Positions 1 through 64,000 of a DNA stretch of 64,000 bases are shown here, one piece after another. The notes beneath the pieces are model-generated. The model had not been told where the DNA came from. It saw only the letters and a list, made by a program, of their open reading frames with translations, and made no database searches. Source of the DNA: Clostridia bacterium (GTDB taxonomy: Bacteria > Bacillota > Clostridia > UBA1212 > UBA1255); NCBI GenBank assembly GCA_017560765.1, contig JAFZEI010000015.1:397-64396 (forward strand), written 5' to 3'. The first letter of the stretch is position 1. The number at the start of each line of letters is the position of its first letter. The translations under genes and the position numbers were made by a program.

Positions 1-536
1 TATGCAAAGAAATCCTGTTGAGCATCATCTTTAGTTTTCATTACCAAAAAGTAGAACGTAATAGTATCCCCGTTTGCGAGCGTGAGCACATATCCATTGT
101 CAGGTATTGCCGGACCTGTATACGCATTTACTCTCTCTACCAGTGTTTTTTGTAATCCCCAAATATATTGGCCATCAGTGAAATTCCAAACAACGGCTTG
201 TACCGTATTTGTATCACTAAGTATGTAGCCTGATGCATCATCATATTTATAAAGTTCATCAAAACTTTGAGTAAGAAGTATCTTTATCTTTTGCGAAACA
301 TCACTACCATCAACATTACTTGTTGCTACTGACGTATCTACAGGTGTAAATACATCACCGGTGTAGGCACCCTTCTTTTTTTGATCAAGGCAAAATCCAC
401 GATAGTCATTCGAAAACAAAACGTCTGTATATCCGTTTGTCATAGATGAAGCATCATCTGCAAAAACAGGTACTACAGCTATCGAAGACAACAAAAAAAC
501 TACGGTCATTACTACACATAAAATTCTTTTTACCAT
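1..536 (-). CDS. Secreted surface protein, N-terminal fragment (gene runs off the window start); signal peptide plus thioester-domain (TED/TQXA)-like adhesin module
   Basis: ATG at 536 with GGAG 8 nt upstream. Own translation: MVKRILCVVMTVVFLLSSIAVVPVFADDA (signal peptide), then RGFCLDQKKKGAY (candidate thioester Cys), TNTVQAVVWNFTDG (TQXA-like Gln motif) and AQQDFFA. The frame is open to position 1. It is absent from the ORF track because there is no stop in the window. Confidence 0.7.
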   Translation of the reverse strand, partial: MVKRILCVVMTVVFLLSSIAVVPVFADDASSMTNGYTDVLFSNDYRGFCLDQKKKGAYTGDVFTPVDTSVATSNVDGSDVSQKIKILLTQSFDELYKYDDASGYILSDTNTVQAVVWNFTDGQYIWGLQKTLVERVNAYTGPAIPDNGYVLTLANGDTITFYFLVMKTKDDAQQDFFA

Positions 537-570
537 CTACTTCACTCCTTTTTTTGGTATAACTGCAAGC

Positions 571-648
571 AAATACACATTCATATTTGTGTATTTACAA
601 ATATCTGTTGATATATACAATCACAGCTATTATTGATTATATATCAAC
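571..648. promoter_or_regulatory. Two inverted repeats upstream of the adhesin gene (candidate operators or 5' UTR hairpins)
   Basis: AAATACACA (571-579) pairs with TGTGTATTT (588-596), with an 8-nt loop. GTTGATATATA (607-617) pairs with TATATATCAAC (638-648), a perfect 11-bp pair with a 20-nt spacer. Both lie 35-112 nt upstream of the ATG at 536. Confidence 0.35.
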
Positions 649-780
649 TTGTCTTCCACTGTCAATCTTTGGGAAACATAAAATATTCCCACTAAAAACA
701 AGAACAGCACCACTTCGCAAAAAGCTTCTGTAGTACTGTTCATCTATTATAAGTTGCTAAATTATAATTATCTTATTATA

Positions 781-978
781 TTAACAATTTTTGCAACGGT
801 AGCTTGAGCACAAACTCTCATCCTCTGTCTGAGAACAGTTCCCTTTTCTGGGTGCAACCTGAATTTCAGCTAAAGAACAAGAATGTTCTGTCTCCATATT
901 ATATATGCAGCTTTTAACGTTACACATTATTGACTGCTTTCCTGTTTTACAATTTTTCGAATCTTTACAATTGTCCAT
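781..978 (-). CDS. Small Cys-rich protein, DUF1540-like
   Basis: 65 aa. The core MCNVKSCIYNMETEHSCSLAEIQV resembles the C-x-V-x2-C-x-Y-N...C-x-A-x2-I-x-V pattern I recall for DUF1540 proteins of spore formers. Confidence 0.6.
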   Translation of the reverse strand: MDNCKDSKNCKTGKQSIMCNVKSCIYNMETEHSCSLAEIQVAPRKGNCSQTEDESLCSSYRCKNC

Positions 979-1067
979 TTCGAAGCGCCTCCGTATAATA
1001 ATTTATATCTTTTGGATACGCATTTATTATTACCTCAATACAAAAAAATATTCATCCTAAAAAATAC

Positions 1068-1105
1068 AAAAAAAGACCTACAACAGTCGTTAACTATTGT
1101 AGGCC
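1068..1105 (-). terminator. Rho-independent terminator of pck
   Basis: Minus strand reads GGCCTACAA-tagttaacgac-TTGTAGGTC followed by TTTTTTT. It starts 33 nt after the pck stop. Confidence 0.8.
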
Positions 1106-6922: not shown

Positions 6923-9130
6923 TCAGATTAATATCTTATGCACTTTTCCGTCATCTTCCAATTTTATTGTTTTGCATCCTTTTGATTTTACAGTAATGAT
7001 ATATACAGAATTTTTATATTTATATTCTATTGTATATTCCTTCCACTCATCCGGAATGTTTGCGTTCAATACTATTTCTGCTTTACCCTTAATTTCACTG
7101 TTTTTCACTGTAAATCCCAAAATATCTTCAAGAATCACCTGATACAGCCATGAGGACGAACCTGTATACCAAGTCCAACCGCCGCGACCAATATTTTCAT
7201 CGCTGTAAATATCTGCTGCAACAGCATAAGGTTCCGTTTTATAACGCGCAACTTCCAATTCTGTCCTGGTATGATTTATAGGGTTTATTACATCTACCAT
7301 ACGTCTTCCTTTTTTAGCAAAATCATCTCCCATTTTAAGAAATGCTTTTGCCAACCAAACTGCCCCATGGGTGTATTGTGCACCATTCTCACGTATTCCG
7401 GCAGGATATGACGCAATATAACCCACATCTTCAATAGAATCAGCAGAAAAAGGAGGCGTGAGCAGCTTTATTATTCCGTTGTTATAATCTGCCAAAAAGC
7501 GTTCCGCAGACAAAAGAGCAGTCTTGCACCTTTCTTTATTTCCAAAGCCGCTTAACACTGCCCATGATTGAGCTATGGAGTCTATCATACATTCTCCCGA
7601 ACGGTGGCTGCCTAAAACCCTCCCGTTATCACAAAACGCACGAATATACCAATTGCCATCCCAAGCATGTTTTTCTATGGCATCGGCAATTTTTTTTGTT
7701 TCCGTTTGCAATCTATGCCTGTCTACCTTTGCAGATTGAGACAGAAGCGACATTTTATCCAAGGCCTTTAGGCAATAACATAAGAACCAGCCGAGCCAGA
7801 CACTTTCGCCTTTACCTTGAATGCCCACGCGGTTCATTCCGTCGTTCCAATCACCGCCCATTATAAGCGGAATACCATGTTCTCCGTATCTCATTGCGTG
7901 CCTGCATGCCAACAGGCAATGGGAAAACAGACTCTCGCTTTTTTCAGATACCTCAGGTATCTCATATCTGTCAATTTCGTTAAAATCAAGAGATTTACTC
8001 TTAATATACGGTACTTTTATATCAAGAATCCCACTGTCTCCCGTAACTTCTATATAGCGAAAAGTCACGTAAACGAGCCACAGTAAATCGTCGCTGTATC
8101 TGCTGCGTATACCTGCATTTTCCGGAGGATGCCACCAATGTTGTACATCGCCTTCCTCATACTGTCTTGAGGCATGCAGTAAAATGCGCTCTTTAACTTT
8201 CTGCGGGTCTGTACATAAAAGGGCAAGGCTGTCTTGAAGTTGGTCTCTAAAACCATAAGCACCGCCGCATTGATAAAAAGCAGTTCTGCCATTTAAGCGG
8301 CAACTAACAGTTTGGTACAAAAGCCAACCGTTCATCATAACATTTATGCTCTTTTCCGGCGTAGTTATGCGAATTCGTCCTAAATATTCTGACCAATAAT
8401 CTTTTACTTTTTCAAGCGCCTCACTGCATGCTTCATATCTGGTATATTCTTGTAAAACAGTCTTATTGTCTGACAGTAGCAAAACACCTTTCCATGTATC
8501 ACCTTTAGAAACAGCCTTTCGTATATTTTCCGCCGAGGAATACATCTCGTGCCTGTATGGTGTTTCAACGGAATACTTTAGAGACAATTTCTTTTCTTTC
8601 TCCGACGTAATTTCAAAAAGCGTTATTTTAACACCTTTGTTTATTGGTACAAATGTTGTAAAACACCACTCTATTCCGTTATATTCTCCTTTAAAGGATG
8701 AATATCCATAGCCATGATGTGTTATGCAATTTGAAAAAGGAGAAATGGAATTTTCTCCTTCTTCTGTAAATTCTGTAATTTCTATACGTTCATCAGATAA
8801 ATCCTCCAGAGGATCGCAATACCAGCGAGTTATAGGATTTTCTCTGCTGTTTCCATGCCAAACGTAACCTCCGCCTTTTTCTGAAATAATAAAGCCAAAC
8901 GGTTCTCCTTCAGCAGCAGAGATGCAATTAATCCAAGGTACAGGAGGACTTTTATATATAATATATTCTCCTGACGATGTATCAAAACCACCAAATCCAT
9001 TGTTAAATTCCAAATTACCGTAATTAAAATTCCTTTTCACAAGCAGCACTCCCAATTTTTTATCATAGCCAAAAGACAAGATTTGATGCTTCAATGATTG
9101 GTGCAGCTCCGTTACTGTCTTTAGGCACAA
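6923..9130 (-). CDS. GH94 (cellobiose/cyclic-glucan phosphorylase-like) domain protein; C-terminal part of a cyclic beta-1,2-glucan synthase in a separate frame
   Basis: EFNNGFGGFDTSSGEYIIY (GH94 N-terminal signature), RYSDDLLWL and GGDWNDGMNRVG...GESVWLGWF (catalytic region). The track start at 9130 is a TTG. GTG at 9040 has GGAG 8 nt upstream and lies 23 nt after the upstream stop. Confidence 0.85.
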   Translation of the reverse strand: MCLKTVTELHQSLKHQILSFGYDKKLGVLLVKRNFNYGNLEFNNGFGGFDTSSGEYIIYKSPPVPWINCISAAEGEPFGFIISEKGGGYVWHGNSRENPITRWYCDPLEDLSDERIEITEFTEEGENSISPFSNCITHHGYGYSSFKGEYNGIEWCFTTFVPINKGVKITLFEITSEKEKKLSLKYSVETPYRHEMYSSAENIRKAVSKGDTWKGVLLLSDNKTVLQEYTRYEACSEALEKVKDYWSEYLGRIRITTPEKSINVMMNGWLLYQTVSCRLNGRTAFYQCGGAYGFRDQLQDSLALLCTDPQKVKERILLHASRQYEEGDVQHWWHPPENAGIRSRYSDDLLWLVYVTFRYIEVTGDSGILDIKVPYIKSKSLDFNEIDRYEIPEVSEKSESLFSHCLLACRHAMRYGEHGIPLIMGGDWNDGMNRVGIQGKGESVWLGWFLCYCLKALDKMSLLSQSAKVDRHRLQTETKKIADAIEKHAWDGNWYIRAFCDNGRVLGSHRSGECMIDSIAQSWAVLSGFGNKERCKTALLSAERFLADYNNGIIKLLTPPFSADSIEDVGYIASYPAGIRENGAQYTHGAVWLAKAFLKMGDDFAKKGRRMVDVINPINHTRTELEVARYKTEPYAVAADIYSDENIGRGGWTWYTGSSSWLYQVILEDILGFTVKNSEIKGKAEIVLNANIPDEWKEYTIEYKYKNSVYIITVKSKGCKTIKLEDDGKVHKILI

Positions 9131-12100
9131 TTACAAAAATATCGCCTCTTACAGGGAAACATCCCCACATAGCTCTTTGCACAAGAGAATCGGCCAACTC
9201 GTGTATCGGACTTACATAGTCTGAATTGTCAAAGACTGCTAAAACCATATCAAGTTTTATACCTCTGAAACTATAATAGCACCACATTCTTACTAATCTT
9301 TCAAGTCTTACAGCATTTTCGACTTTGCGTATCAAAACAGTAATTATAGGATTGTCGCCTGAAATACCGTAGCCCCATAAATGCTTTTTTGTTTTATCGT
9401 CATAATATTTTCTGCCGTAAAGTAATTTAGAAGCATAACTTCTGAAAAATTGCATATCTCCTTTTCTAAAAGAAATATGTTCTTTTTCTATGAGGCAACG
9501 CGTCCTTGCCAATTCAAAAATACGTTGTGTGTTGGCAAAACTGTTAATTTCTGTAAAAGCAGTCTCTTTATTCTGATTCATGCCCATAACAAGCGAAAAA
9601 ACTGCATTTTCTCCGGCTTCGACACGCAACTTAAGATTTACTGCAAAGCATGGATTTAAAACGGTTCCAGCTATGCCTGATAACAAAAAGTCAGAACTAC
9701 CGTTTCTTCCCTTAAAAGAAAGTACATCAGTGTCATACATTATTGATTCCACCTGTTTTTTGCTTTCAGAAGAAACATCCACATAAAAGTAACTTTCCAC
9801 ATGATTATCCGTCGGCTTATGCTTTCGCCTTGTTGCCAAAAGGCAAACACTTGAGCTTTCTGTCTTTACAGCTTTCGTGGTAATAAACATTCCCGAATAA
9901 GAAGGATGCGCCGCATACGAAGCAGGATAGTCCATCATAAGTCTGCAATACAATGTTATGTTTTCATACAGCTCATTTTTCCCTTTGTTTGTAATTTTAA
10001 AAATACGAACTTCTGCGTTATCTTCCGTTGCTACACATATACTTTGTGTTACTTCCTCTTGTTTTGTAAGGTAGAGATATTCACCGCTCCCGGAATAAAC
10101 AGTACATTTTACAGGTTTCATCATTTCACCATTTAAATAAAACACAATACCCTCAGGTAAAATTTGTTCTCTGTGAACATCAATGCCCATCCCGCATAGG
10201 GAAGAATAGCTGTTTCCCTGACCGTTGATTACCACACTGTATTTACCATTTGACAGTACATGAGCATCGTGTCCGGAAATGCAAACGTACTGTTCCTGCT
10301 GTTTTTCTTCACCTGAAGGTTCTTTACGGACAAGCTCATTTTTCGTCTTTGAAGCGTGTTTTTTAAATGCTTTTTTAGGGAACTTTTCTGTAAGCATTAC
10401 TTTAACCGGTTGCATCATTGCCATGTCGCTCAAGCCTTTTGATACCATTTCGTCAAAAAGCAAGTTTGCAATGCCGCATAAAGCCATACCCACATGATGT
10501 GCCATAAAACTTTCTACAATGCCTTTTCTTCCCGGAGTAAAGTCAATTGCCTCGTAATAACCATATTTTCCCTCTGTTCCCAATCGTGACAACAGCTCCA
10601 TATTACTGAATACTGCTTGTGGCGTAATGCTGCTTGCCATTAGACTTGCATAAGGTGCTACAACTGCATCGTCATTATGCATTCTCTTGACTGCCAAAGA
10701 TTTTAGGCCAAAAGCTTTGTATTTATAATTCATATTTATATCAAGCGCATTATAACCTGATTCTGAAATACCCCAAGGTTTATCTCCCGCAAGACTTTGC
10801 TGAATTTCCAGCATTTCATAAATCGATTTATTTAAAGCCGAACCGCAAGGCGACGGCACAAACAATTCAGGCAATACATATTCAAAAACAGTTCCGGACC
10901 AAGAAAGAAGCACATTGCCATCTTCATTACATCTGCGTGCAAGAGCAGAAAAGTGTTCCGCCTCCACATCACCCTTTGCCATGGCCACATAAGAAGTCAG
11001 CCGCGCCTCCGACATAATCATATCATAAAAAGAATTTGAAAATTCCCCCGTACTGTAATTATAACCTATACATAAATGCCTATGCTTATCGTTATACAGA
11101 ATGCCAAAATCCATTGCCAAAGCCATATTTTTCATTCTGGCTGCCAGAATTTTTTTATCCTCATATAAATTAAAAACACCTTGTGTAATATTTTTTTCTG
11201 CATTAACAAGCATTTCTTTCAAATTACAGCGAAAAGAATGGGCGTCTGCCTTTTCGTTCTTTACAGGCGCAACAAGCTCTTTATAATATTGTATTACTCT
11301 CAGAAATTCTTCTTTTGTATAATTATCTTTATTTAAGAATTCTTCTAAAACCCATATTTCTGCTGTATTTCCTTTTTCTGCAAATTCGTTTAAACAACAT
11401 ACTGTATCGTACAGACCTTCAGCAGATTTTTTTATATAATCTTCTGTTGTCTCCACTTCATTTATTGAATTTATCAGTGAAGACGCTGCCAACAGGCAAG
11501 CAGCAAGATTGCCGCTGTCTACACAAGAAACGTATTTTGGTTCCAGAACCTGCAAAGACATTGTGTCATACCAATTAAAAATATGCCCGTTCCACTTGTC
11601 CATTCTGTCTAAGGTATTCATAATTTTTTCTAAACGAACAAGCATTTCTCCTTGAGATATATAACCGAAGTGTTGTGCAATTACAGTAGAAACTATCAAA
11701 AAACCAATATTTGTAGGAGATGTTCTGTGGGCTACCGAATACACCGGCGAAAATTGCACATTGTCAGGGGGCAGAAAATTATCGCTTTCTACGGCATAAT
11801 CGTAATAAAAAGCCCATATTTTTCTTGCATTAATACGAAATTTCTTTATTTGAAGCTTTGTAAGTTTTTTAGATTTATTTCCGTATCTTTGTTTAATTGT
11901 TTTTTTAGAACAAACATAAGCTCCCCACGGTCCTAAAATCCACAATACACTTGGAATTCCAAACAAAAAAGGCGCCATAACAGCTGCCGAAGCAAAATTT
12001 ATCCACATTGTTCTGTTATAGTAAGCTAATGTATTTTGTATGCTTTTGTCAGCATCAGAGGAAACAACCCATTCCAGCATTTTCTGTCTGCTGCGAAAAG

Positions 12101-14543
12101 TTCTCCACACCGCACGTATCATACCATCTGCATGAACAAGGAAAGTGTGTGGAAGCAGTATAAAATTGCTTAGTACTCGCATGATTCTTGGTACGAATCT
12201 ACCTCCCGATGTGATTAACAGTGTACCTGTAACGATAAAAACCCATAAAAAGGCATCACGGCGAAGAAAAAGCATTCCTATCACAAAAACCATAAAAAGA
12301 GCTACAGGCAACAAACTTCTTAATAAATTCATTCCGATTTTAAAACGCGAGTAAAAATTAAGAGGATTATTTTTTAATACACCTTTTTCGTTTTCAAATC
12401 TTTTTCCCAAAAAAGGAAGTAACTGCCAATCTCCTCTTATCCACCTATGCTCTCTTTTAATATATCCACCGTAGCTGCGGGGAAAACTGTCATATAAATG
12501 AACATCCGAAACAAATGCAGTTCTTACAAAGGAACCTTCCAAAAGGTCGTGGCTTAATATACTGTTTCTTTTAAATCTCCCATCAAGAACACCATTGAAA
12601 ACATAAGGATCATACATGCCCTTTCCCGTATATATTCCCTCTGCGCAAACATCAAAATAAAAATCTGATGTTTTGCATCCGTATGAATCAAATCCCACTT
12701 CATCACTGTAAATTTTTTCAAAAATTGTTGTATTTTCTCTGTCGAGTCCTGATGGGGATATTGCAGGCTGCAAAAGCCCGTAACCCTTTGTCACCACGGG
12801 TTCACCTTTTACATAACTTATCTGCGGACGGTTTAAAGGATGATACATAATTTGCGCCATTTTGACAGCCGTATTTATTGGAATTACTGAGTCCGCATCT
12901 ACTGTCAGCACATAATTCACTTTTGGCAACTCACCTTTAATAATTGCTCTGTTAAGCTCAATAAGTGCACCTCTTTTTCTCTCATACCCCATCCATTTAT
13001 TGTCTTCTTTATAAAAATCTCTTTCCCTGACAAGTATACAAAAACGTTCACCTAACTTTTCTGTTTCTGTCTTTGCATACTGAATGAGTTCCCTGTCTTC
13101 CGGTGTGGTTTTTGTGGTACTTTCAGGTAAATCTGCCAACAAAGTATACCAAATCCCCTCTTGAGGATTTGCCCAATATGCCGCCTCCAATTGCTTAATC
13201 ATTTCGTCTACTCGTTTTTTTGAGGTTATCATACATGGCAAAACTATCATAATTTTACAATCCTCAGGTAATTTACCATGAAATTCCATTTCCGGCAGCG
13301 AAAACGGCATCTTCCTGTCCGTGTACATTTTCTGTATCAATGACAAAGAAATATTCATTGACGCAATTAATATAAGCAAAACGCAAAAGGCTCCTAAAAA
13401 TATTCCGAATATACCGTAAAGTTCCATAGAAAGCCCATACGCATAAACTCCGGGGCAAAAGGCCAAAACGGCAGAAGTAAACAAGAACATAACAAAAAAA
13501 GAGCCAAAGTCATTATGCTTTGTATAGTCCTCATATATAAAATCCCCTACATGAGCCTGCCGGTTTTGAGCCTTTTCCAATACTTCCAATGCATATTTTT
13601 CGGGAGAGGTATGTTTGCGTTTTGCACATACTTGTACAATACGCAAATATTCACGTCTTGACTTGGATGTCATTTTGTTAAAAATTCCCGTGGGATCTTT
13701 GCGTAAAATCTGCTCTGTAACACAAAGCTCAGACATAATTTTATCCCAATCCAGTGACGGCAAATCCCTTAGACTTTTTATGGCATTTCCCATAGAAACA
13801 CCTAATGAAATTCTCGTTCTGTGTTCTCTTTCTATCAGCTCTTCAACCGTTGTTCCTTTTGCTGCCAGCTTACCGGAAAGAGCAGTTCTTATTGTGTCAT
13901 TCTGTTCTAATTCAGCAGACAACCGAAGTACAGTTTCGGCAAAAACAGGCGTTATCATATCTGCATTATCAAACAAAACAGCTGCACTTCTCATGCGCTG
14001 CCCATTTTCCGTAGTGTAAGAAGAAAACTCTCTGAAAATTTTCTCGGCTGTTTTTCTGTCTTTGTATATTTTATCCGAAATTTTACAAATTTCTGCAATT
14101 CTCTTAATAAGTGCCACTTGTAGCATACATGGCAAAAACGTAAGAGACTCGGTATCTATTGGTCTTATTTTTTCATACGACGTTACAAAATCCAATATTT
14201 CCCGCTGCCCAATGCAGCCATCTGTATGCGAAGCAATTTCCGCCGCCAAATCATAAACAGGTAAAATTTTACGACTGTATTCTTCGTTTTTTACACTTTC
14301 GGCAGCCTCATTTACAACATGATAATTGTCAGCTATCCACTCGTCCGACGGAATACTTTGCAATTTTTGCGTATTTTCGCCATCTGACATAATTCTGCTG
14401 TATGTTTCATCTATACTTCCACTGCATTTTTCTATTGACGGAATGCTCCTTACGCCGTATCTGCCTTGCAAATGCTTTTCTCCGATATTTGCAGCATGCT
14501 TTATATATTCTTTTCCCGTTAATAATGTATCCTCAAGAATCAT
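9063..14543 (-). CDS. Cyclic beta-1,2-glucan synthase, N-terminal 1826 aa (N-terminal region, GT84-like glycosyltransferase, TM segments, glucoamylase-like/cyclization region)
   Basis: WIADNYHVVNE, WMGYERKRGALIELN, LTVDADS, GYGLLQPAI, SHDLLEGSF, REHRWIRGDWQLLPFL, SPTNIGFLIV, NWYDT...VDSGNLAACLLA and GISESGYNA. This is the same order as in Cgs/ChvB/NdvB. Confidence 0.85.
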   Translation of the reverse strand: MILEDTLLTGKEYIKHAANIGEKHLQGRYGVRSIPSIEKCSGSIDETYSRIMSDGENTQKLQSIPSDEWIADNYHVVNEAAESVKNEEYSRKILPVYDLAAEIASHTDGCIGQREILDFVTSYEKIRPIDTESLTFLPCMLQVALIKRIAEICKISDKIYKDRKTAEKIFREFSSYTTENGQRMRSAAVLFDNADMITPVFAETVLRLSAELEQNDTIRTALSGKLAAKGTTVEELIEREHRTRISLGVSMGNAIKSLRDLPSLDWDKIMSELCVTEQILRKDPTGIFNKMTSKSRREYLRIVQVCAKRKHTSPEKYALEVLEKAQNRQAHVGDFIYEDYTKHNDFGSFFVMFLFTSAVLAFCPGVYAYGLSMELYGIFGIFLGAFCVLLILIASMNISLSLIQKMYTDRKMPFSLPEMEFHGKLPEDCKIMIVLPCMITSKKRVDEMIKQLEAAYWANPQEGIWYTLLADLPESTTKTTPEDRELIQYAKTETEKLGERFCILVRERDFYKEDNKWMGYERKRGALIELNRAIIKGELPKVNYVLTVDADSVIPINTAVKMAQIMYHPLNRPQISYVKGEPVVTKGYGLLQPAISPSGLDRENTTIFEKIYSDEVGFDSYGCKTSDFYFDVCAEGIYTGKGMYDPYVFNGVLDGRFKRNSILSHDLLEGSFVRTAFVSDVHLYDSFPRSYGGYIKREHRWIRGDWQLLPFLGKRFENEKGVLKNNPLNFYSRFKIGMNLLRSLLPVALFMVFVIGMLFLRRDAFLWVFIVTGTLLITSGGRFVPRIMRVLSNFILLPHTFLVHADGMIRAVWRTFRSRQKMLEWVVSSDADKSIQNTLAYYNRTMWINFASAAVMAPFLFGIPSVLWILGPWGAYVCSKKTIKQRYGNKSKKLTKLQIKKFRINARKIWAFYYDYAVESDNFLPPDNVQFSPVYSVAHRTSPTNIGFLIVSTVIAQHFGYISQGEMLVRLEKIMNTLDRMDKWNGHIFNWYDTMSLQVLEPKYVSCVDSGNLAACLLAASSLINSINEVETTEDYIKKSAEGLYDTVCCLNEFAEKGNTAEIWVLEEFLNKDNYTKEEFLRVIQYYKELVAPVKNEKADAHSFRCNLKEMLVNAEKNITQGVFNLYEDKKILAARMKNMALAMDFGILYNDKHRHLCIGYNYSTGEFSNSFYDMIMSEARLTSYVAMAKGDVEAEHFSALARRCNEDGNVLLSWSGTVFEYVLPELFVPSPCGSALNKSIYEMLEIQQSLAGDKPWGISESGYNALDINMNYKYKAFGLKSLAVKRMHNDDAVVAPYASLMASSITPQAVFSNMELLSRLGTEGKYGYYEAIDFTPGRKGIVESFMAHHVGMALCGIANLLFDEMVSKGLSDMAMMQPVKVMLTEKFPKKAFKKHASKTKNELVRKEPSGEEKQQEQYVCISGHDAHVLSNGKYSVVINGQGNSYSSLCGMGIDVHREQILPEGIVFYLNGEMMKPVKCTVYSGSGEYLYLTKQEEVTQSICVATEDNAEVRIFKITNKGKNELYENITLYCRLMMDYPASYAAHPSYSGMFITTKAVKTESSSVCLLATRRKHKPTDNHVESYFYVDVSSESKKQVESIMYDTDVLSFKGRNGSSDFLLSGIAGTVLNPCFAVNLKLRVEAGENAVFSLVMGMNQNKETAFTEINSFANTQRIFELARTRCLIEKEHISFRKGDMQFFRSYASKLLYGRKYYDDKTKKHLWGYGISGDNPIITVLIRKVENAVRLERLVRMWCYYSFRGIKLDMVLAVFDNSDYVSPIHELADSLVQRAMWGCFPVRGDIFVIVPKDSNGAAPIIEASNLVFWL

Positions 14544-50450: not shown

Positions 50451-53400
50451 TTATTTTGGAACTCTGTATGCAAAACGGAATTGGTTTGTACTCTTGTCTA
50501 TAGTCTCATACGAAGGTTGTACTGATCTTATTCTGGAATCACTACCCGCATCGTATCTATATGAGTAACCTCCATCATAGTCACTGGCAATAATGAATAC
50601 GTGTCTCGGATAGTTAGAATATGCAGGAGCAAAGCTTCCCGTATAACCAACGAATACAATATCACCTGCTTTAAGTGAACTCAGTGATGTTACCTTAGTA
50701 AATCCGTAGCGCAAAAGGAATGTTTCAAGACTGATAATATTTGCGCCGGAGTTACCGTAAAGTGAAAGTCCTTCTTTAGAAGGCTGATGTGCTGTATAGC
50801 CTGCATTACCCATGAGCCAACCTATAAATCTGTCACAAGATACATGCTTGTATGATTTGTCAAGATATGGGTTAACTGTAGAGTGTCCGTATACCCAGCC
50901 ATTTACTCTTGCATAGTCTGCAACAGATTTAGCATGAGTAAGAAGTTTTGCAACTTTCTGTCCGTGTTTAGCATAAACAAATGCACCGTTTTGATCATAT
51001 ACTGCATAACCTGTTGTTGAATTCTCATTTGCTTTTGCAACCGCAGCATTATAATCAGTATATACTCCGCCGATTTGCGCACCTAAATCATTCTTTACAT
51101 ACCATGAAATATTTTCTGCTGTTCTATCTGCTATAAAGAAGCGTTGATTTTCTTCGCCATAGTAAGTATAGAGTTGAACATTTGTTCCGCTTGTGTAATC
51201 TGCATTAGAAACATCCAAAGCCATTTTGTCACAATGAGCAGGACGGAAAGCATATGTTGTTTCTTGAATATACAGGTACCATTGCTGAGAAAGGCTATCA
51301 TTGCAGTTCTCCGTAACAATATTTGTTACATCTGTCACACCGGCTCCGCTTACAGCCAAAGCTTTATCATTACTCTCGTTGACAATTCTGTAAGCACCAT
51401 TGTCAAGTCGTATGAATTTCCAAAGTTGACTTGATGAAGCAGCCGGAGTAGCAAGCTGAACATTAGTACCTGAAACAGCAAGAGATTTACCTCCAACAGT
51501 TATATGCGCAAAGAAATTCGTACCAACATCTGCAGGCGTCAATTTATTAAATGTACTTGTTTGTGTATTCAAATAATTTACTGCAGCGTCACCATATTTA
51601 ATTATTTTTTCAGTGATATCAACGAGTTTTGCATCTGTACCACTCTGTGATGAATAAACATACGACTCAATGCTATATTCAAATGTTCCGCTTATTGCTT
51701 TACCAGTACTGTCACAAACAGTGAGTTTCACTGTTTTGCTCATCTGCGATGCACCTAATCCATCAAAAACAAATGCATATACAGGTGTACCGGCAGGTCC
51801 TGTTACAGTTGAAAAGGCATCTTGTTTTACAGTTCCCAACAAATTATTGCTTGTATCCGTTACCTTAACATATACATTTGATAAATCTGTATCAAAATAT
51901 CCTTTGATTGCAACTTTATTATCAAGATAAAGTCCCATCGCTAACCAAGTAGCTTTATCGCCGGAAGCTACAGTAGGCGCTTTTTTCACATTTGTGAGAG
52001 CTCTTAAATCACTTGTGCCAAATTTCTTCTGAGCTGTTGTCAAATTTGCACTAACAAGTTTGTCTACATTATATCCATTATAAATCTGTGCTGATGCTCC
52101 GTAATTAAGCATATCAACAAGCAATGTCTTAAAAGATGGATCCGTTGCCGATGCAAGTTTAGAATAAATATATGTAGCCACACTATATTGGTTCGTCTTA
52201 CTTGAATATACAACTCCGTCTTTAGTTGCTTTTAATGTTGTAAAAATAGCGTCGTTCATCATCTGAGGCGCCACGTTGTTAAATGAGAATAAATAACAAG
52301 CAACTCCGCCGACAGAGGATGTTACTGGATTAAGAGTAATTGTTTTTCCGCCAAAAGTCGCCTCAAGATAAGGATTTGAAAAACCTGCAGCATCAAAGAT
52401 ATCTTTCTTTACAAGATATTTAATTGTAATATCACTTGAAATTGAAAGTGTTGTACCATCAATTTTAAGTGCAGTGTCTTTTACTTTAACAAAACCAGAG
52501 TCTGTTATAAATTGGTCTGTAATATCAGAAGAACCTGATGTTGCACTGTTTACAGTAACCATTACATCGTTATCGCCCAAATTAGCGTTACTGTTTACTT
52601 TAAACTCTATGTAAGCAATAGTTCCGGTTGCTGTTGTGTTAGCAGTACCTTTCCAAGATAATTCATATGAATATGTTGTTTTTGTTGCTTTGAAAACAGC
52701 ATTTCCCATTACGATACCATTTGTCGCTTTTACTGGAGTCAAAACGCTTGGATCCCATTTTACATTAACTACAAGATTCTTTAATCCGGGGTTATTTCCT
52801 AATACAACAGGAACTTTTACCGTGCCGCCAATATTTGCCTCAACATCATCTGCATATATATCAGCCGATTTTGCAACATCAGTCACTGTAAAATATACCT
52901 TGCTGCCTTTTGGAGAAGTGTCTCTCATTATTACAGCATAGTAGTTACCTGCTGAAAGCCTCGGCAAGGAAACTGTCTTTTCGCCGCTAAGATTAATTCT
53001 GTGCATAGGATTTGCCGTTCCCATACCTGAACCGCACTCTTCACCATCATTATAGATACCCAACCAAAGATTGCTTGTAATTGAATCTCCGTAATTAATT
53101 GTTGCTTTAAGATTTCCTGTTTCGCTTACAGTAGTTGAATTAAGTGTAAGAGAAGGATCTACCGTACCTTCATATCCATAATATATGTTATCAATATTAA
53201 ATGCTCTGAAGCGAGAACCAATTGCCATAGATTTTACATAAGAAATCATTGCATTTGATGTTGTAGCCTTTAAATTGCCATTTGCATCATAAATAGTTGC
53301 TGTTCTGTAATATCTCTCGTTATATGCGTCTGATGAGCTTGGTAAAAGACCGGGATCAGCATAAGTTACAAATGCAAATACTTCTCCGTCAAGAGCAAAT

Positions 53401-54587
53401 CTCATTTTTCCACGTCCGTCATCTATCGCTTTGAATTTATGGAAAGCTGTATCAATATAACTTGTGAGCGGATGTGTGTATTTTATTTGAGACAAAGTTC
53501 CCGAAGCTGCATTATATGTTATTACACAAACTTCAATCATAGAAGGATGAATATTTACACTTACACCACTCTTACCTACAGAGTTTTCTCCGTCCACTTT
53601 ATTTGATTCGAAAAACTTATTGTCTTTCCAATCTTTTTCATAGCCATAATTGAATACAAATCCTGCAAAGTGACCAGCTGCTGTTTCCGGCTTTACATCT
53701 GCTGAGAATAAATAAGCACATCCGTTATTGAAGAATTTATTTACCTGCATACTGTCATATTTCAACTTAAGGTACTTATTTGTTCCTTCTACAACGTATT
53801 CGGAATCTCCTGTTCCTGCATTAAACAAGAATTCACCATTAATATTTGTTTTGCTTCCGATAAGTGCAAGACCATTCGTTACTGCAGCTTCTTGGAAATC
53901 ATATGATGTCTTTGGTACATAATGCAAACCATGAGGTATAATGTCAACTCTGCCGGATTTTACATCTGTATAAACCTTACAGAACAAATCATCATATTCT
54001 TGTGCCTGTGCTACACTGTCAAAGAAACCTATATATGCCACATCAACTGTTTTGCCTGCAACTGATGACGCACCGATTCTCATTGATGTAATTGTAGCAT
54101 TAAGCTGTGCTGATGTACCAACAGAACTTGTTGACGAACCCATTAACTCTTTTGATAAGTTGTATGTGGTAAGATTCCATACGCCGTCGCAAACCAGCTT
54201 GCTGGTAGATATAACTCCGCCTGCGGCAGGACCCCAACCACCGGCTGTTGTATCGGGATAAAGCCAAGGGTTACTGATTGATGTATTAATATCTCCCTTG
54301 TACTTAATTGCCATAATCTTACCGCTCATGCTTGTATCTACAAGATTTACTGTAAAATACGGGTCGTTAGCATCTGTCGTTTTAATGGAAACATACTCAT
54401 CTTTGTATGTGTATGTTATTCCACTCGACGATGTATCAATAATTAGTTTGTGATTACCTTCCGCAAAAGATGTTACTCCCTTGTATGAACTCAGCTCCGC
54501 TGCCAACAATACATTAGTTGAGGGCAACATACTAAATACCATCACAAAAACAAGTAACAGCGAAAGAAACTTCATTCCTCGTTTCAT
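50451..54587 (-). CDS. Large secreted multidomain protein. Order: signal peptide, shared N-terminal domain, ConA/LamG-like region, cohesin-like domain, duplicated about 140-aa module, ricin-type beta-trefoil lectin, C-terminal NlpC/P60-like cysteine peptidase
   Basis: RBS is AAAGGAGAG. Signal peptide MKFLSLLLVFVMVFSMLPSTNVLLAAE. Cohesin-like residues about 575-700 (GGTVKVPVVLGNNPGLKNLVVNVKWDPSVL...GTIAYIEFKV). Ricin-like residues about 1025-1155 (QLWKF, QQWYL and ENQRFFI as QxW-type repeats). The C-terminus has HVSCDRFIGW plus GDIVFVGY...PRHVFII (Cys/His of papain-like NlpC/P60). Confidence 0.8.
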   Translation of the reverse strand: MKRGMKFLSLLLVFVMVFSMLPSTNVLLAAELSSYKGVTSFAEGNHKLIIDTSSSGITYTYKDEYVSIKTTDANDPYFTVNLVDTSMSGKIMAIKYKGDINTSISNPWLYPDTTAGGWGPAAGGVISTSKLVCDGVWNLTTYNLSKELMGSSTSSVGTSAQLNATITSMRIGASSVAGKTVDVAYIGFFDSVAQAQEYDDLFCKVYTDVKSGRVDIIPHGLHYVPKTSYDFQEAAVTNGLALIGSKTNINGEFLFNAGTGDSEYVVEGTNKYLKLKYDSMQVNKFFNNGCAYLFSADVKPETAAGHFAGFVFNYGYEKDWKDNKFFESNKVDGENSVGKSGVSVNIHPSMIEVCVITYNAASGTLSQIKYTHPLTSYIDTAFHKFKAIDDGRGKMRFALDGEVFAFVTYADPGLLPSSSDAYNERYYRTATIYDANGNLKATTSNAMISYVKSMAIGSRFRAFNIDNIYYGYEGTVDPSLTLNSTTVSETGNLKATINYGDSITSNLWLGIYNDGEECGSGMGTANPMHRINLSGEKTVSLPRLSAGNYYAVIMRDTSPKGSKVYFTVTDVAKSADIYADDVEANIGGTVKVPVVLGNNPGLKNLVVNVKWDPSVLTPVKATNGIVMGNAVFKATKTTYSYELSWKGTANTTATGTIAYIEFKVNSNANLGDNDVMVTVNSATSGSSDITDQFITDSGFVKVKDTALKIDGTTLSISSDITIKYLVKKDIFDAAGFSNPYLEATFGGKTITLNPVTSSVGGVACYLFSFNNVAPQMMNDAIFTTLKATKDGVVYSSKTNQYSVATYIYSKLASATDPSFKTLLVDMLNYGASAQIYNGYNVDKLVSANLTTAQKKFGTSDLRALTNVKKAPTVASGDKATWLAMGLYLDNKVAIKGYFDTDLSNVYVKVTDTSNNLLGTVKQDAFSTVTGPAGTPVYAFVFDGLGASQMSKTVKLTVCDSTGKAISGTFEYSIESYVYSSQSGTDAKLVDITEKIIKYGDAAVNYLNTQTSTFNKLTPADVGTNFFAHITVGGKSLAVSGTNVQLATPAASSSQLWKFIRLDNGAYRIVNESNDKALAVSGAGVTDVTNIVTENCNDSLSQQWYLYIQETTYAFRPAHCDKMALDVSNADYTSGTNVQLYTYYGEENQRFFIADRTAENISWYVKNDLGAQIGGVYTDYNAAVAKANENSTTGYAVYDQNGAFVYAKHGQKVAKLLTHAKSVADYARVNGWVYGHSTVNPYLDKSYKHVSCDRFIGWLMGNAGYTAHQPSKEGLSLYGNSGANIISLETFLLRYGFTKVTSLSSLKAGDIVFVGYTGSFAPAYSNYPRHVFIIASDYDGGYSYRYDAGSDSRIRSVQPSYETIDKSTNQFRFAYRVPK

Positions 54588-62591: not shown

Positions 62592-64000
62592 ACATCACAT
62601 TCTTTATGGTGTATTATCTATGTACCTCTCGTTCGCAGTAGAAATGAGGTATATATGGCTAAAAAAATACAAACTAATCAAAAACACTTGACACAGGACG
62701 ACAGAGTTACTATCGAAAAGTGTTTGGATGCAAAAACAACGCTGTGTCATATTGCACAAGAACTCGGAAAGGACCCTACTACTATTGCTAAAGAAATCAA
62801 AAAACATCGAACATTTCAACAGCATAACACTTTCAATGACAAGCCAAACCGTTGTGCATTAGCACCATCTTGTCACAGAAAAAATCTTTGTGAGATATTT
62901 GCTCCCATATGCAAAAAAGAATGCAAATATTGCCCGCGATGTCATAAACACTGTCCAGATTTTATTCCCTATGATTACCATTGTAAACTTACAGATAAAG
63001 CACCTTATGTTTGCAATGGTTGCCAGAAGAAAGCCCAATGTCGCTTAGATAAATATTTTTATCGGGCAACAAAAGCACAAAAGGAATACAAAACCATACT
63101 TTCAGAATCCAGAACAGGCATAAATCTTTCAGAAGAAGAATTGACTCTTCTGGACGAAACTATCAGTCCTCTAGTTCTGCAAGGACAATCTGTTTACATG
63201 ATACTTCAAAATCATCCCGAAATTACTTTGTGCGAAAAAACGATTTACAACTACATCGATTCGGGAGTTTTATCTGTAGGCAATCTTGAACTTCCTAAAA
63301 AGGTAAAATACAAAGTGCGTAAATCTCACGAAACTACAATAAATGATTCAGGCATTTTCGTCGGACGTACATACAAAGATTTTCTCGCTTTTATCAAAGA
63401 AAATCACGATATACGCATTACCGAAATGGATACTGTTTTAGGATGCGAAGGTAGCAAAAAGCTTCTCTTAACATTGCATTTTGGCGAGACCAATTTTATG
63501 ATGGCGTATCTTTTAGACTCAAAAGAAGCACGTGGTATAGAAGCTGTTTTCGATAGTATTAATTCCGCCCTCGGAACGCCTCTATTCTACAAATCAATGC
63601 CTGTAATACTCACAGACAGAGGTGGGGAATTTCGCCATCCCGACACACTTGAATGCAGCGTGGATAATTTAATCAGAACAAGTGTTTTTTATTGTGATCC
63701 TATGTCTTCGTGGCAGAAACCACATTGTGAAAAGAACCACGAATATATACGCAAAATCTGTCCGCAAGGCAAAACCTCTTTCGACAGATTAACACAAGAA
63801 GATGTAAATCTTATGATGAGTCACATTAACAGTTCATGCAGAGAAAGCCTCGGAGGTTTATCTCCTTTTGCTCTTGCAAAACTAATGTTACCAAAAGAAT
63901 TATTGTCATTTTTCAATTTAACGGAAATTCCTCCTGATGACATTATTCTTACGCCAAAGCTCTTAAAGGGTAAAATCGAAGTATGAATAAAAAATCACAG
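62592..64000 (+). mobile_element. IS30-family insertion sequence (left boundary approximate; right end at or beyond the window edge)
   Basis: Contains the IS30-type transposase ORF starting about 60 nt after the hairpin. The ends are not defined because no inverted repeat pair could be found inside the window. Confidence 0.6.
62655..63986 (+). CDS. IS30-family DDE transposase with a Cys-rich insert between the HTH and catalytic regions
   Basis: N-terminal HTH (LTQDDRVTIEKCLDAKTTLCHIAQELGKDPTTIAKEIKKH). Cys-rich block (CHRKNLC...CKKECKYCPRCHKHC...CNGCQKKAQC). DDE-type core (ITEMDTV, LTDRGGEF, KNHEYIRK). RBS is GAGG. Confidence 0.85.
   Translation: MAKKIQTNQKHLTQDDRVTIEKCLDAKTTLCHIAQELGKDPTTIAKEIKKHRTFQQHNTFNDKPNRCALAPSCHRKNLCEIFAPICKKECKYCPRCHKHCPDFIPYDYHCKLTDKAPYVCNGCQKKAQCRLDKYFYRATKAQKEYKTILSESRTGINLSEEELTLLDETISPLVLQGQSVYMILQNHPEITLCEKTIYNYIDSGVLSVGNLELPKKVKYKVRKSHETTINDSGIFVGRTYKDFLAFIKENHDIRITEMDTVLGCEGSKKLLLTLHFGETNFMMAYLLDSKEARGIEAVFDSINSALGTPLFYKSMPVILTDRGGEFRHPDTLECSVDNLIRTSVFYCDPMSSWQKPHCEKNHEYIRKICPQGKTSFDRLTQEDVNLMMSHINSSCRESLGGLSPFALAKLMLPKELLSFFNLTEIPPDDIILTPKLLKGKIEV

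Follow-up and report, generated by a model that had tools for sequence, protein, structure and literature searches.

A divergent thioester domain at the head of a predicted surface adhesin from gut Clostridia

Gene and domain organization

The DNA analyzed here (hereafter the window) is a 64,000-nucleotide stretch of contig JAFZEI010000015.1 (positions 397 to 64,396, forward strand, assembly GCA_017560765.1) from a Clostridia bacterium. At its start, on the minus strand, lies the 5' part of a gene (1..536; 178 codons plus 2 nt) that we consider likely to encode the N-terminus of a secreted, probably sortase-anchored adhesin. Its head would be a thioester domain (TED, residues ~27-184) with a predicted Cys49-Gln174 thioester for amine capture. 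Translation of window 1-536 from the ATG at 536 gives 178 codons with no stop, and the reading frame is open at the window start. An initial annotation of this DNA had counted the same codons, and the signal peptide and three peptide strings that it reported were reproduced exactly on retranslation.

The open reading frame (ORF) is a real gene, and a chance ORF is excluded. The sequence itself shows a ribosome-binding site (AAAGGAG; 545..551, minus strand) 8 nt ahead of the ATG. Further upstream is a promoter-like site (TTGACA-18 nt-TATAAT; 636..665, minus strand) that, from its match to the sigma-70 consensus at 12 of 12 positions, may drive transcription. The upstream PEPCK gene is closed by a terminator-like hairpin (1075..1105, minus strand), which marks the adhesin gene as a separate transcription unit. 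An identical public protein of 311 aa (P0001), encoded on a 64,686-bp contig and recorded as 'MAG: hypothetical protein IKY41_00775, partial [Clostridia bacterium]' (MAG, metagenome-assembled genome), carries the gene past the window to at least residue 311 and is still partial.

The encoded protein begins with a signal peptide that looks Sec-type (MVKRILCVVMTVVFLLSSIAVVPVFA, residues 1-26; 459..536, minus strand), with cleavage predicted before DDASS. N-termini are conserved across the TED family in the alignment of relatives. The TED follows (residues 27-178 of ~27-184; 3..458, minus strand), identified by fold, motifs and alignment, and only the last ~6 residues of its final β-strand lie beyond the window.

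In characterized TEDs the thioester is formed by the Cys of a [YFL]CΦζ motif on a β-strand and the Gln of a weak ΦQζΦΦ motif carried by the final β-strand; these two are the only universally conserved residues. A TQxxΦW motif, which is helical (α2), adjoins the bond, and its Gln and Trp are non-essential and incompletely conserved (PMC4450167, PMC6194298). Counterparts of each motif were identified. The predicted thioester Cys, C49 (codon 390-392), is in F48-C49-L50-D51 (384..395, minus strand), part of GFCLDQKKKGAY (residues 47-58). The predicted thioester Gln, Q174 (codon 15-17), is 125 residues further on in Q173-Q174-D175-F176-F177 (6..20, minus strand), part of AQQDFFA (residues 172-178). 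Between them is the helper motif T111-V-Q113-A-V-V-W117 on helix α2 (186..206, minus strand), part of TNTVQAVVWNFTDG (residues 109-122), which does not form the bond and in which Thr is shifted by one residue relative to TQxxΦW. The initial annotation had placed Q113 about 75 residues after the Cys (the gap is 64) and had taken it as the bonding partner. Because only the bonding Cys and Gln are universal in TEDs, the signature it recognized was the right one, but the Gln it chose is a helper; the expected partner is Q174 in AQQDFFA, a string it had also quoted.

Fold and residue equivalence

An AlphaFold2 model of residues 28-190, built from a 42-sequence alignment (A3), has a mean predicted local distance difference test score (pLDDT) of 96.7 and a predicted template modeling score of 0.91. 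It comprises seven β-strands and three helices arranged in the TED fold, a β-barrel subdomain plus a three-helix bundle. C49 is at the end of a model strand (E19-22), Q113 and W117 are within the second helix (H82-94) and Q174 opens the last strand. The top 12 Foldseek matches in the PDB are all TEDs (4C0Z, 5A0D/5A0G and 5A0L; probability 0.96-1.00, template modeling score ~0.5), followed by noise. Fold comparison gave scores of 10.3 for 5A0G (root-mean-square deviation 2.5 Å over 121 residues), 10.0 for 2XI9, 9.4 for 6FWV, 9.2 for 5A0L, 8.7 for both 5DCQ and 5A0N, 8.5 for 6FX6 and 6.5 for 6FWY. The next hit, which is not a TED, scored 4.0.

Residues were matched to those of CpTIE-TED from C. 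perfringens (PDB 5A0G/5A0D; Walden 2015), a proven TED. A protein homologue search with a 51-aa CpTIE fragment returned no match; the gene was recovered from a human-gut metagenome contig via a back-translated DNA pattern, and its numbering was verified (Cys138 in VVYCFN, Gln267 in YYQNLL, spacing 129, Ser100 as published). Alignment of the family to CpTIE-TED by hhalign (E 1.6e-5, probability 79%) pairs TVQAVVW with TQRAVW, so that Q113 falls on the Gln of TQRAVW. It also pairs the IPD of both domains, and AQQDFFAYKI with YYQNLLGTKF, thereby matching Q174 to Gln267. The Pfam TED profile aligns to residues 36-149 of the CpTIE construct (profile 1-101, 59.7 bits) and to residues 47-124 of the window protein (profile 2-74), and therefore Cys138 and C49 both fall on profile position 4. 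Three family members match the same profile in the same register at 18-19 bits. Identification of the window domain as a TED is thus supported by its fold, its motifs, residue alignment to a proven TED and conservation within the family (below). On these grounds the thioester domain proposed in the initial annotation stands, with its Cys reassigned to a different Gln.

Searches of the PDB with a single sequence and with a 4-sequence profile found no TED match. The 42-sequence family profile matched 5A0D/5A0G at E 0.014-0.019 and 4C0Z (Cpa) at E 0.25. A word-indexed search recovered 6 relatives only, and an exhaustive profile search 220 cluster representatives (172 at E<=1e-10 and 81 at E<=1e-30); the family is counted here as ~220 clusters at 50% identity. 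Pfam TED is found at E<0.01 in 11 of 56 full-length relatives (best E 3.9e-4). In the representatives the TED is almost always directly after the signal peptide, in proteins of up to ~1,800 aa.

Conservation across the family

Conservation was counted in 118 full-length family domains. C49 is kept in 114 (97%) and Q174 in 110 (93%). Q113 is kept in 80 (68%), and is replaced by S, P, A, L, G, M, N, H or F in the other 38. Position 117 is W in 80 and Y in 36 (98% W or Y). The four members without the Cys all lack Q174 and all retain Q113 (Fisher p 9e-6, a value inflated by sequence kinship; the four losses fall in at least three separate parts of the family). Presence of the Cys is not associated with Q113 (p 0.30, likewise affected by kinship). 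That C49 and Q174 are the best-conserved functional pair and are lost together argues that they work as a pair.

The four Cys-less members (P0074, P0097, P0109 and P0124), which have also lost the bonding Gln, retain the Gln of the TQxxΦW motif along with the rest of the scaffold. These apparent 'dead' TEDs might act as non-covalent binders. The domain of P0109, like that of P0108, is located internally (around residue 570); P0108 retains both the Cys and Q174. Lys85 (codon 280-282, minus strand; in LKILFTQ on helix α1) is invariant in 118 of 118 domains, above the thioester Cys. The same holds for F41, G47 and F163, and all of these positions are outside the published TED motifs.

Other variants were also identified. 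A distant subgroup of ~300-aa proteins (P0118-P0152, e.g., P0122, P0127 and P0134) has a YCIN/YCID motif. Their C-termini have an 'H.TGN/Y' motif, a hydrophobic helix and an RRD/KRD tail rather than xPxTGD, and this may be a different sorting signal. P0003 (303 aa, on a 2,313-bp European Nucleotide Archive contig) has a TED and a Ser/Pro/Glu-rich linker followed by an AvrB_AvrC Pfam match (E 2.3e-11), and its C-terminal segment reflects either a true fusion with a Fido-like effector domain or a chimeric assembly. P0005 (208 aa) has no equivalents of residues 118-173 (helix α3 and two strands) and keeps the Cys, a QQIIY helper and DFFAY; it represents a deletion variant or, alternatively, an assembly error.

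Whole-protein architecture and stalk

Judging from the sequences of its ortholog and relatives, the window protein probably has a sortase anchor, which would lie beyond the point where its contig ends. Among 153 representatives, 71 end in xPxTG[D/S/E] followed by a hydrophobic helix and a basic tail, and P0008, which is 75% identical to the window protein, has NPETGD at its C-terminus. A syntenic locus (L001) occurs in a faecal MAG of Candidatus (Ca.) Egerieisoma sp., with a PEPCK gene of 99% amino-acid identity immediately upstream. The ortholog encoded there is complete (837 aa) and consists of a signal peptide, the TED, ~600 aa of acidic Cys/His-rich repeats, a Pro/Thr linker and NPETGE-TM-KRK (TM, transmembrane segment). 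Its downstream neighbour is a GH20 glycosidase.

A genome scan with a 4-sequence alignment as query identified 12 loci, all in MAGs of uncultured gut Clostridia assigned to Ca. Egerieisoma, Eubacteriales, Acutalibacteraceae and 'Clostridia bacterium' (from the gut of goat, sheep, water deer and buffalo). For 10 of these 12 loci (L002-L010 and L012), as for that of the window, the contig ends no more than 2 kb past the TED head. This suggests that the repetitive stalk breaks short-read assemblies, so that the family is systematically truncated and under-annotated in MAGs.

The stalk, which is outside the window (P0001 residues 185-311; L001:6550-8300), is built of tandem ~104-aa acidic Cys/His-rich units with the pattern HxCEF..W..DEDSHWHECxCG / GGEATCxExAxCExCG..NH / PGYTGDxYCxDC..QLH. 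Such units occur in 54 of the 153 representatives, with up to 7 motif copies in one of them. Across 34 units, H20, C24, C42, C48, H63, C88 and C91 are invariant and H5, W13, W21, C26, H35 and C51 nearly so. The units have no Pfam match. A model of one unit (pLDDT 93.7) has short β-hairpins, and its comparison to the PDB with Foldseek gave nothing significant.

The repeat profile does match the IgA protease of Thomasclavelia ramosa (9QA6; E 1.2e-9) over three stretches, in the regions of ZBD1 and ZBD2. Stalk and protease share the HxH...W..D...HWHEC.CG signature, and in each protein the modules separate the functional head from the sortase signal. There are two copies in the IgA protease, isolated from each other, whereas the TED family has long tandem arrays (~600 aa in the ortholog). 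ZBD1 and ZBD2 are putative zinc-binding domains, with 2His+2Cys or 3Cys+1His sites that are predicted rather than observed, and have been proposed as spacers and possibly a novel metal-binding fold (PMC12237041). By this sequence likeness, the stalk modules of the TED family are putative zinc-binding modules.

Genomic context and allelic divergence

The surroundings in the window are chromosomal housekeeping genes: PEPCK, KsgA, an RpfB-like G5/3D protein, TatD, an acyl-ACP thioesterase and GH94 enzymes, with rpoB/rpoC and EF-G farther along. Crude motif scans of the window identified no pilus or conjugation genes and, apart from the adhesin gene, no other sorting-signal proteins, TED motif pairs or stalk repeats.

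Alignment of window 1-1100 to L001:5388-6560 shows a marked change along the locus. For PEPCK, protein identity is 99%, with synonymous divergence (dS) of 0.34 and a ratio of non-synonymous to synonymous divergence (dN/dS) of 0.01, and for the TED head identity is 62%, with dS of 1.1-1.4 and dN/dS of 0.2 (the dS contrast may be overstated owing to codon bias in PEPCK). At the DNA level, identity falls away sharply below about window position 1100 and reaches its minimum, 43% with indels, at 227..152, around the helix of the helper motif. This sequence pattern suggests that ancient divergence or recombination has produced distinct adhesin alleles within backbones that are nearly identical.

Also present in the window are two large ORFs in different frames that overlap by 68 nt (6923-14543, minus strand). 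The first (1,826 aa) has GT2, glucoamylase-like and GH94 supersandwich domains and the second (735 aa) GH94 supersandwich and catalytic domains. The pair, either two genes or one frameshifted gene, looks like a cyclic β-1,2-glucan synthase/phosphorylase system that has been split. A 1,378-aa protein (50451-54587, minus strand) has a signal peptide, ricin-B lectin repeats near residues 1030-1140 and no sorting signal, and is mostly without Pfam match. It is a candidate secreted carbohydrate-binding protein. A 443-aa ORF beside rpoB (62655-63986, plus strand) has an N-terminal HTH_38 domain and is possibly an IS30-type transposase.

Comparison with known thioester domains

CpTIE-TED and the window domain share 14% identity. 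The helical subdomain has 58 residues in the window domain and 88 in CpTIE, i.e., it is ~30 residues shorter, and the window domain has an extra 13-residue β-hairpin between IPD and the last strand. The Pfam TED score is 19.4 bits, as against 59.7 bits for CpTIE. The stalks also differ, with ester-bond Ig domains in CpTIE and Cys/His-rich modules in the family of the window protein.

Class I TEDs (Cpa 2XI9/4C0Z, SfbI 5A0L, PnTIE 5A0N and FNE 5DCQ) have 175-215 residues, compared with ~155 in the window domain. A further helix of Class I TEDs, α0, occupies a 15-20 residue indel that separates β-strand D from α1. In its secondary structure the window-domain model shows no evident counterpart, with one 3-residue turn (model residues 41-43) as the only helical element before α1. 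Carriers of Class I TEDs are pathogens, whereas those of the window type are uncultured gut commensals, and Class I targets such as fibrinogen (for SfbI) are not to be assumed for the window domain. Class II TEDs have a ~75-residue seven-stranded β-sandwich between α3 and the Gln-bearing hairpin, with a slipknot (PMC6194298). Unlike the members with this insertion (BaTIE 6FWV, SaTIE 6FX6, EfmTIE86 6FWY and the pLS20 adhesin), the window domain has 27 residues with two strands between D146 of the IPD turn and Q174, and does not belong to Class II.

TIE proteins have stalks of CnaB-type isopeptide or ester domains. We did not identify Cna_B or any other such stalk domain in P0001 or the full-length ortholog, and Cna_B occurs in only 3 of 56 relatives. 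The stalk consists of ZBD-like Cys/His modules, and the window protein is therefore a thioester-domain protein, not a strict TIE protein.

TEDs are abundant and highly diverse in Gram-positive bacteria, clostridia included. Five divergent clusters missed by Pfam have been described, with metagenomic homologs of each cluster numbering from thousands to tens of thousands (Monzon et al. 2022, PMC9210967). The window domain is real but divergent, and of a known kind; it is thus a well-supported new family member and not a new mechanism. A divergent TED in a gut Clostridia MAG would not surprise a specialist, and what makes this one modestly interesting is its minimal size, the zinc-module stalk and the strong allelic divergence. 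More tentatively, and we think on balance improbably, the ~220 clusters might form a third, minimal TED class, with ~155 residues, none of the class insertions, a β-hairpin of its own and the invariant Lys85, joined to a zinc-stapled stalk and with diverged head alleles.

Proposed function and alternatives

We propose that the adhesin would be exported by the Sec pathway, fold, and be anchored to the wall by sortase. Cys49 (FCLD, on a β-strand) and Gln174 (QDFF, on the last β-strand) would form an internal thioester autocatalytically with loss of ammonia, assisted by Q113 and W117, which would lie next to the bond on the TVQAVVW helix. A nucleophilic amine of the target, typically a Lys side chain, would then attack the thioester, joining the target to Gln174 through an intermolecular isopeptide bond and freeing the Cys49 thiol. 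By analogy with SfbI, covalent adhesion might be pH-reversible (bioRxiv 10.64898/2026.02.05.703941). The stalk of putative zinc modules and the Pro/Thr linker would hold the head off the wall.

Several observations weigh against this proposal. The search for a thioester-domain model, which the initial annotation had suggested as a check, gave a borderline answer: Pfam TED (PF08341) is the only match, and its 19.4 bits (E 1.4e-3) are below the gathering score of 22 bits. An NCBIfam scan of the window fragment gave no match. Together these results explain the 'hypothetical protein' label, and since the sequence model fails the gathering score, TED membership rests on structure and profile-profile evidence. 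The residue preceding Q174 is Gln rather than a hydrophobic residue, in a motif that is described as weak; V, I, T or Y occupies this position in other family members. Extension of the hhalign alignment to the N-terminal half (low mact/global) had zero confidence and a mis-registered Cys and was not used, so C49 and Cys138 are equated on the basis of the Pfam profile, the motif and the fold. The C-terminus of the window protein is absent from every contig found, that of P0001 stopping at residue 311, and a crude motif scan (TLxTC) identified no sortase in the 64-kb window.

Pairing of Cys49 with Gln113, as in the initial annotation, has the appeal that both residues are present at TED-like spacing and that TVQAVVW is the most recognizable TED signature. 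In solved TEDs, however, this Gln is on helix α2, makes only a hydrogen bond to the Cys backbone and is dispensable (PMC4450167, PMC6194298). Q113 is helical in our model as well, all 38 domains that have replaced it retain the Cys, and all four Cys-less members keep it. The pairing is thus very improbable, and we rule it out on the literature and on conservation. A still smaller chance, close to nil, attaches to the idea that the conserved Cys of this secreted protein is the nucleophile of a cysteine peptidase or transglutaminase-like enzyme. No such family or fold matched at any threshold, only TEDs rose above noise, and the invariant residues (F41, G47, K85 and F163) include no conserved His/Asp partner. 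The peptidase reading was excluded because TEDs are the sole fold matches. Somewhat less remote, but unlikely, is a TED fold with no thioester, or with one that is not used, whose binding would be of the ordinary non-covalent kind. TED structure does not depend on the bond (Walden 2015, PMC4450167), and the loss of the Cys and Q174 from four members that persist implies that the scaffold can exist without it. Against this, the window protein has both residues, which are the best-conserved functional pair and are co-lost, and 12 of 12 recombinant TEDs had the -17 Da signature (Walden 2015, PMC4450167).

The nature of the target is the point on which an alternative has most weight. For the predicted adhesin, binding to host or mucus would be plausible. 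A reactive TED whose target is neither a host protein nor mucus is a substantial possibility, if not the one we favor; it might bind other bacteria (for aggregation or mating), plant or dietary matter, or the envelope of its own cell. A Class II TED adhesin encoded by plasmid pLS20 functions in conjugation and not in host binding (PMC8092201), the family is carried by ruminant and faecal Clostridia of the gut that live on digesta, and the L001 ortholog is followed by a glycosidase gene; however, there are no conjugation or mobile-element genes beside the window gene, whose neighbours are PEPCK, KsgA, TatD and the like.

Significance

Thioester adhesins have been studied almost entirely in pathogens, and a sizeable unannotated branch is now seen in uncultured Clostridia of ruminant and faecal gut communities. 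Standard annotation misses this branch, with Pfam below its cut-off, no NCBIfam match and a 'hypothetical' name. The ~155-aa head is a compact candidate for covalent-capture tools and for finding the attachment targets of gut commensals, and it is linked to a poorly understood, putative zinc-module stalk that is also found in an IgA protease. If the more tentative reading of a third, minimal TED class is correct, a stalk with zinc sites would be an alternative to isopeptide and ester cross-links for a force-bearing covalent adhesin in strictly anaerobic gut bacteria, and the highly diverged head alleles kept between near-identical genomes would imply diversification driven by the target or by immunity.
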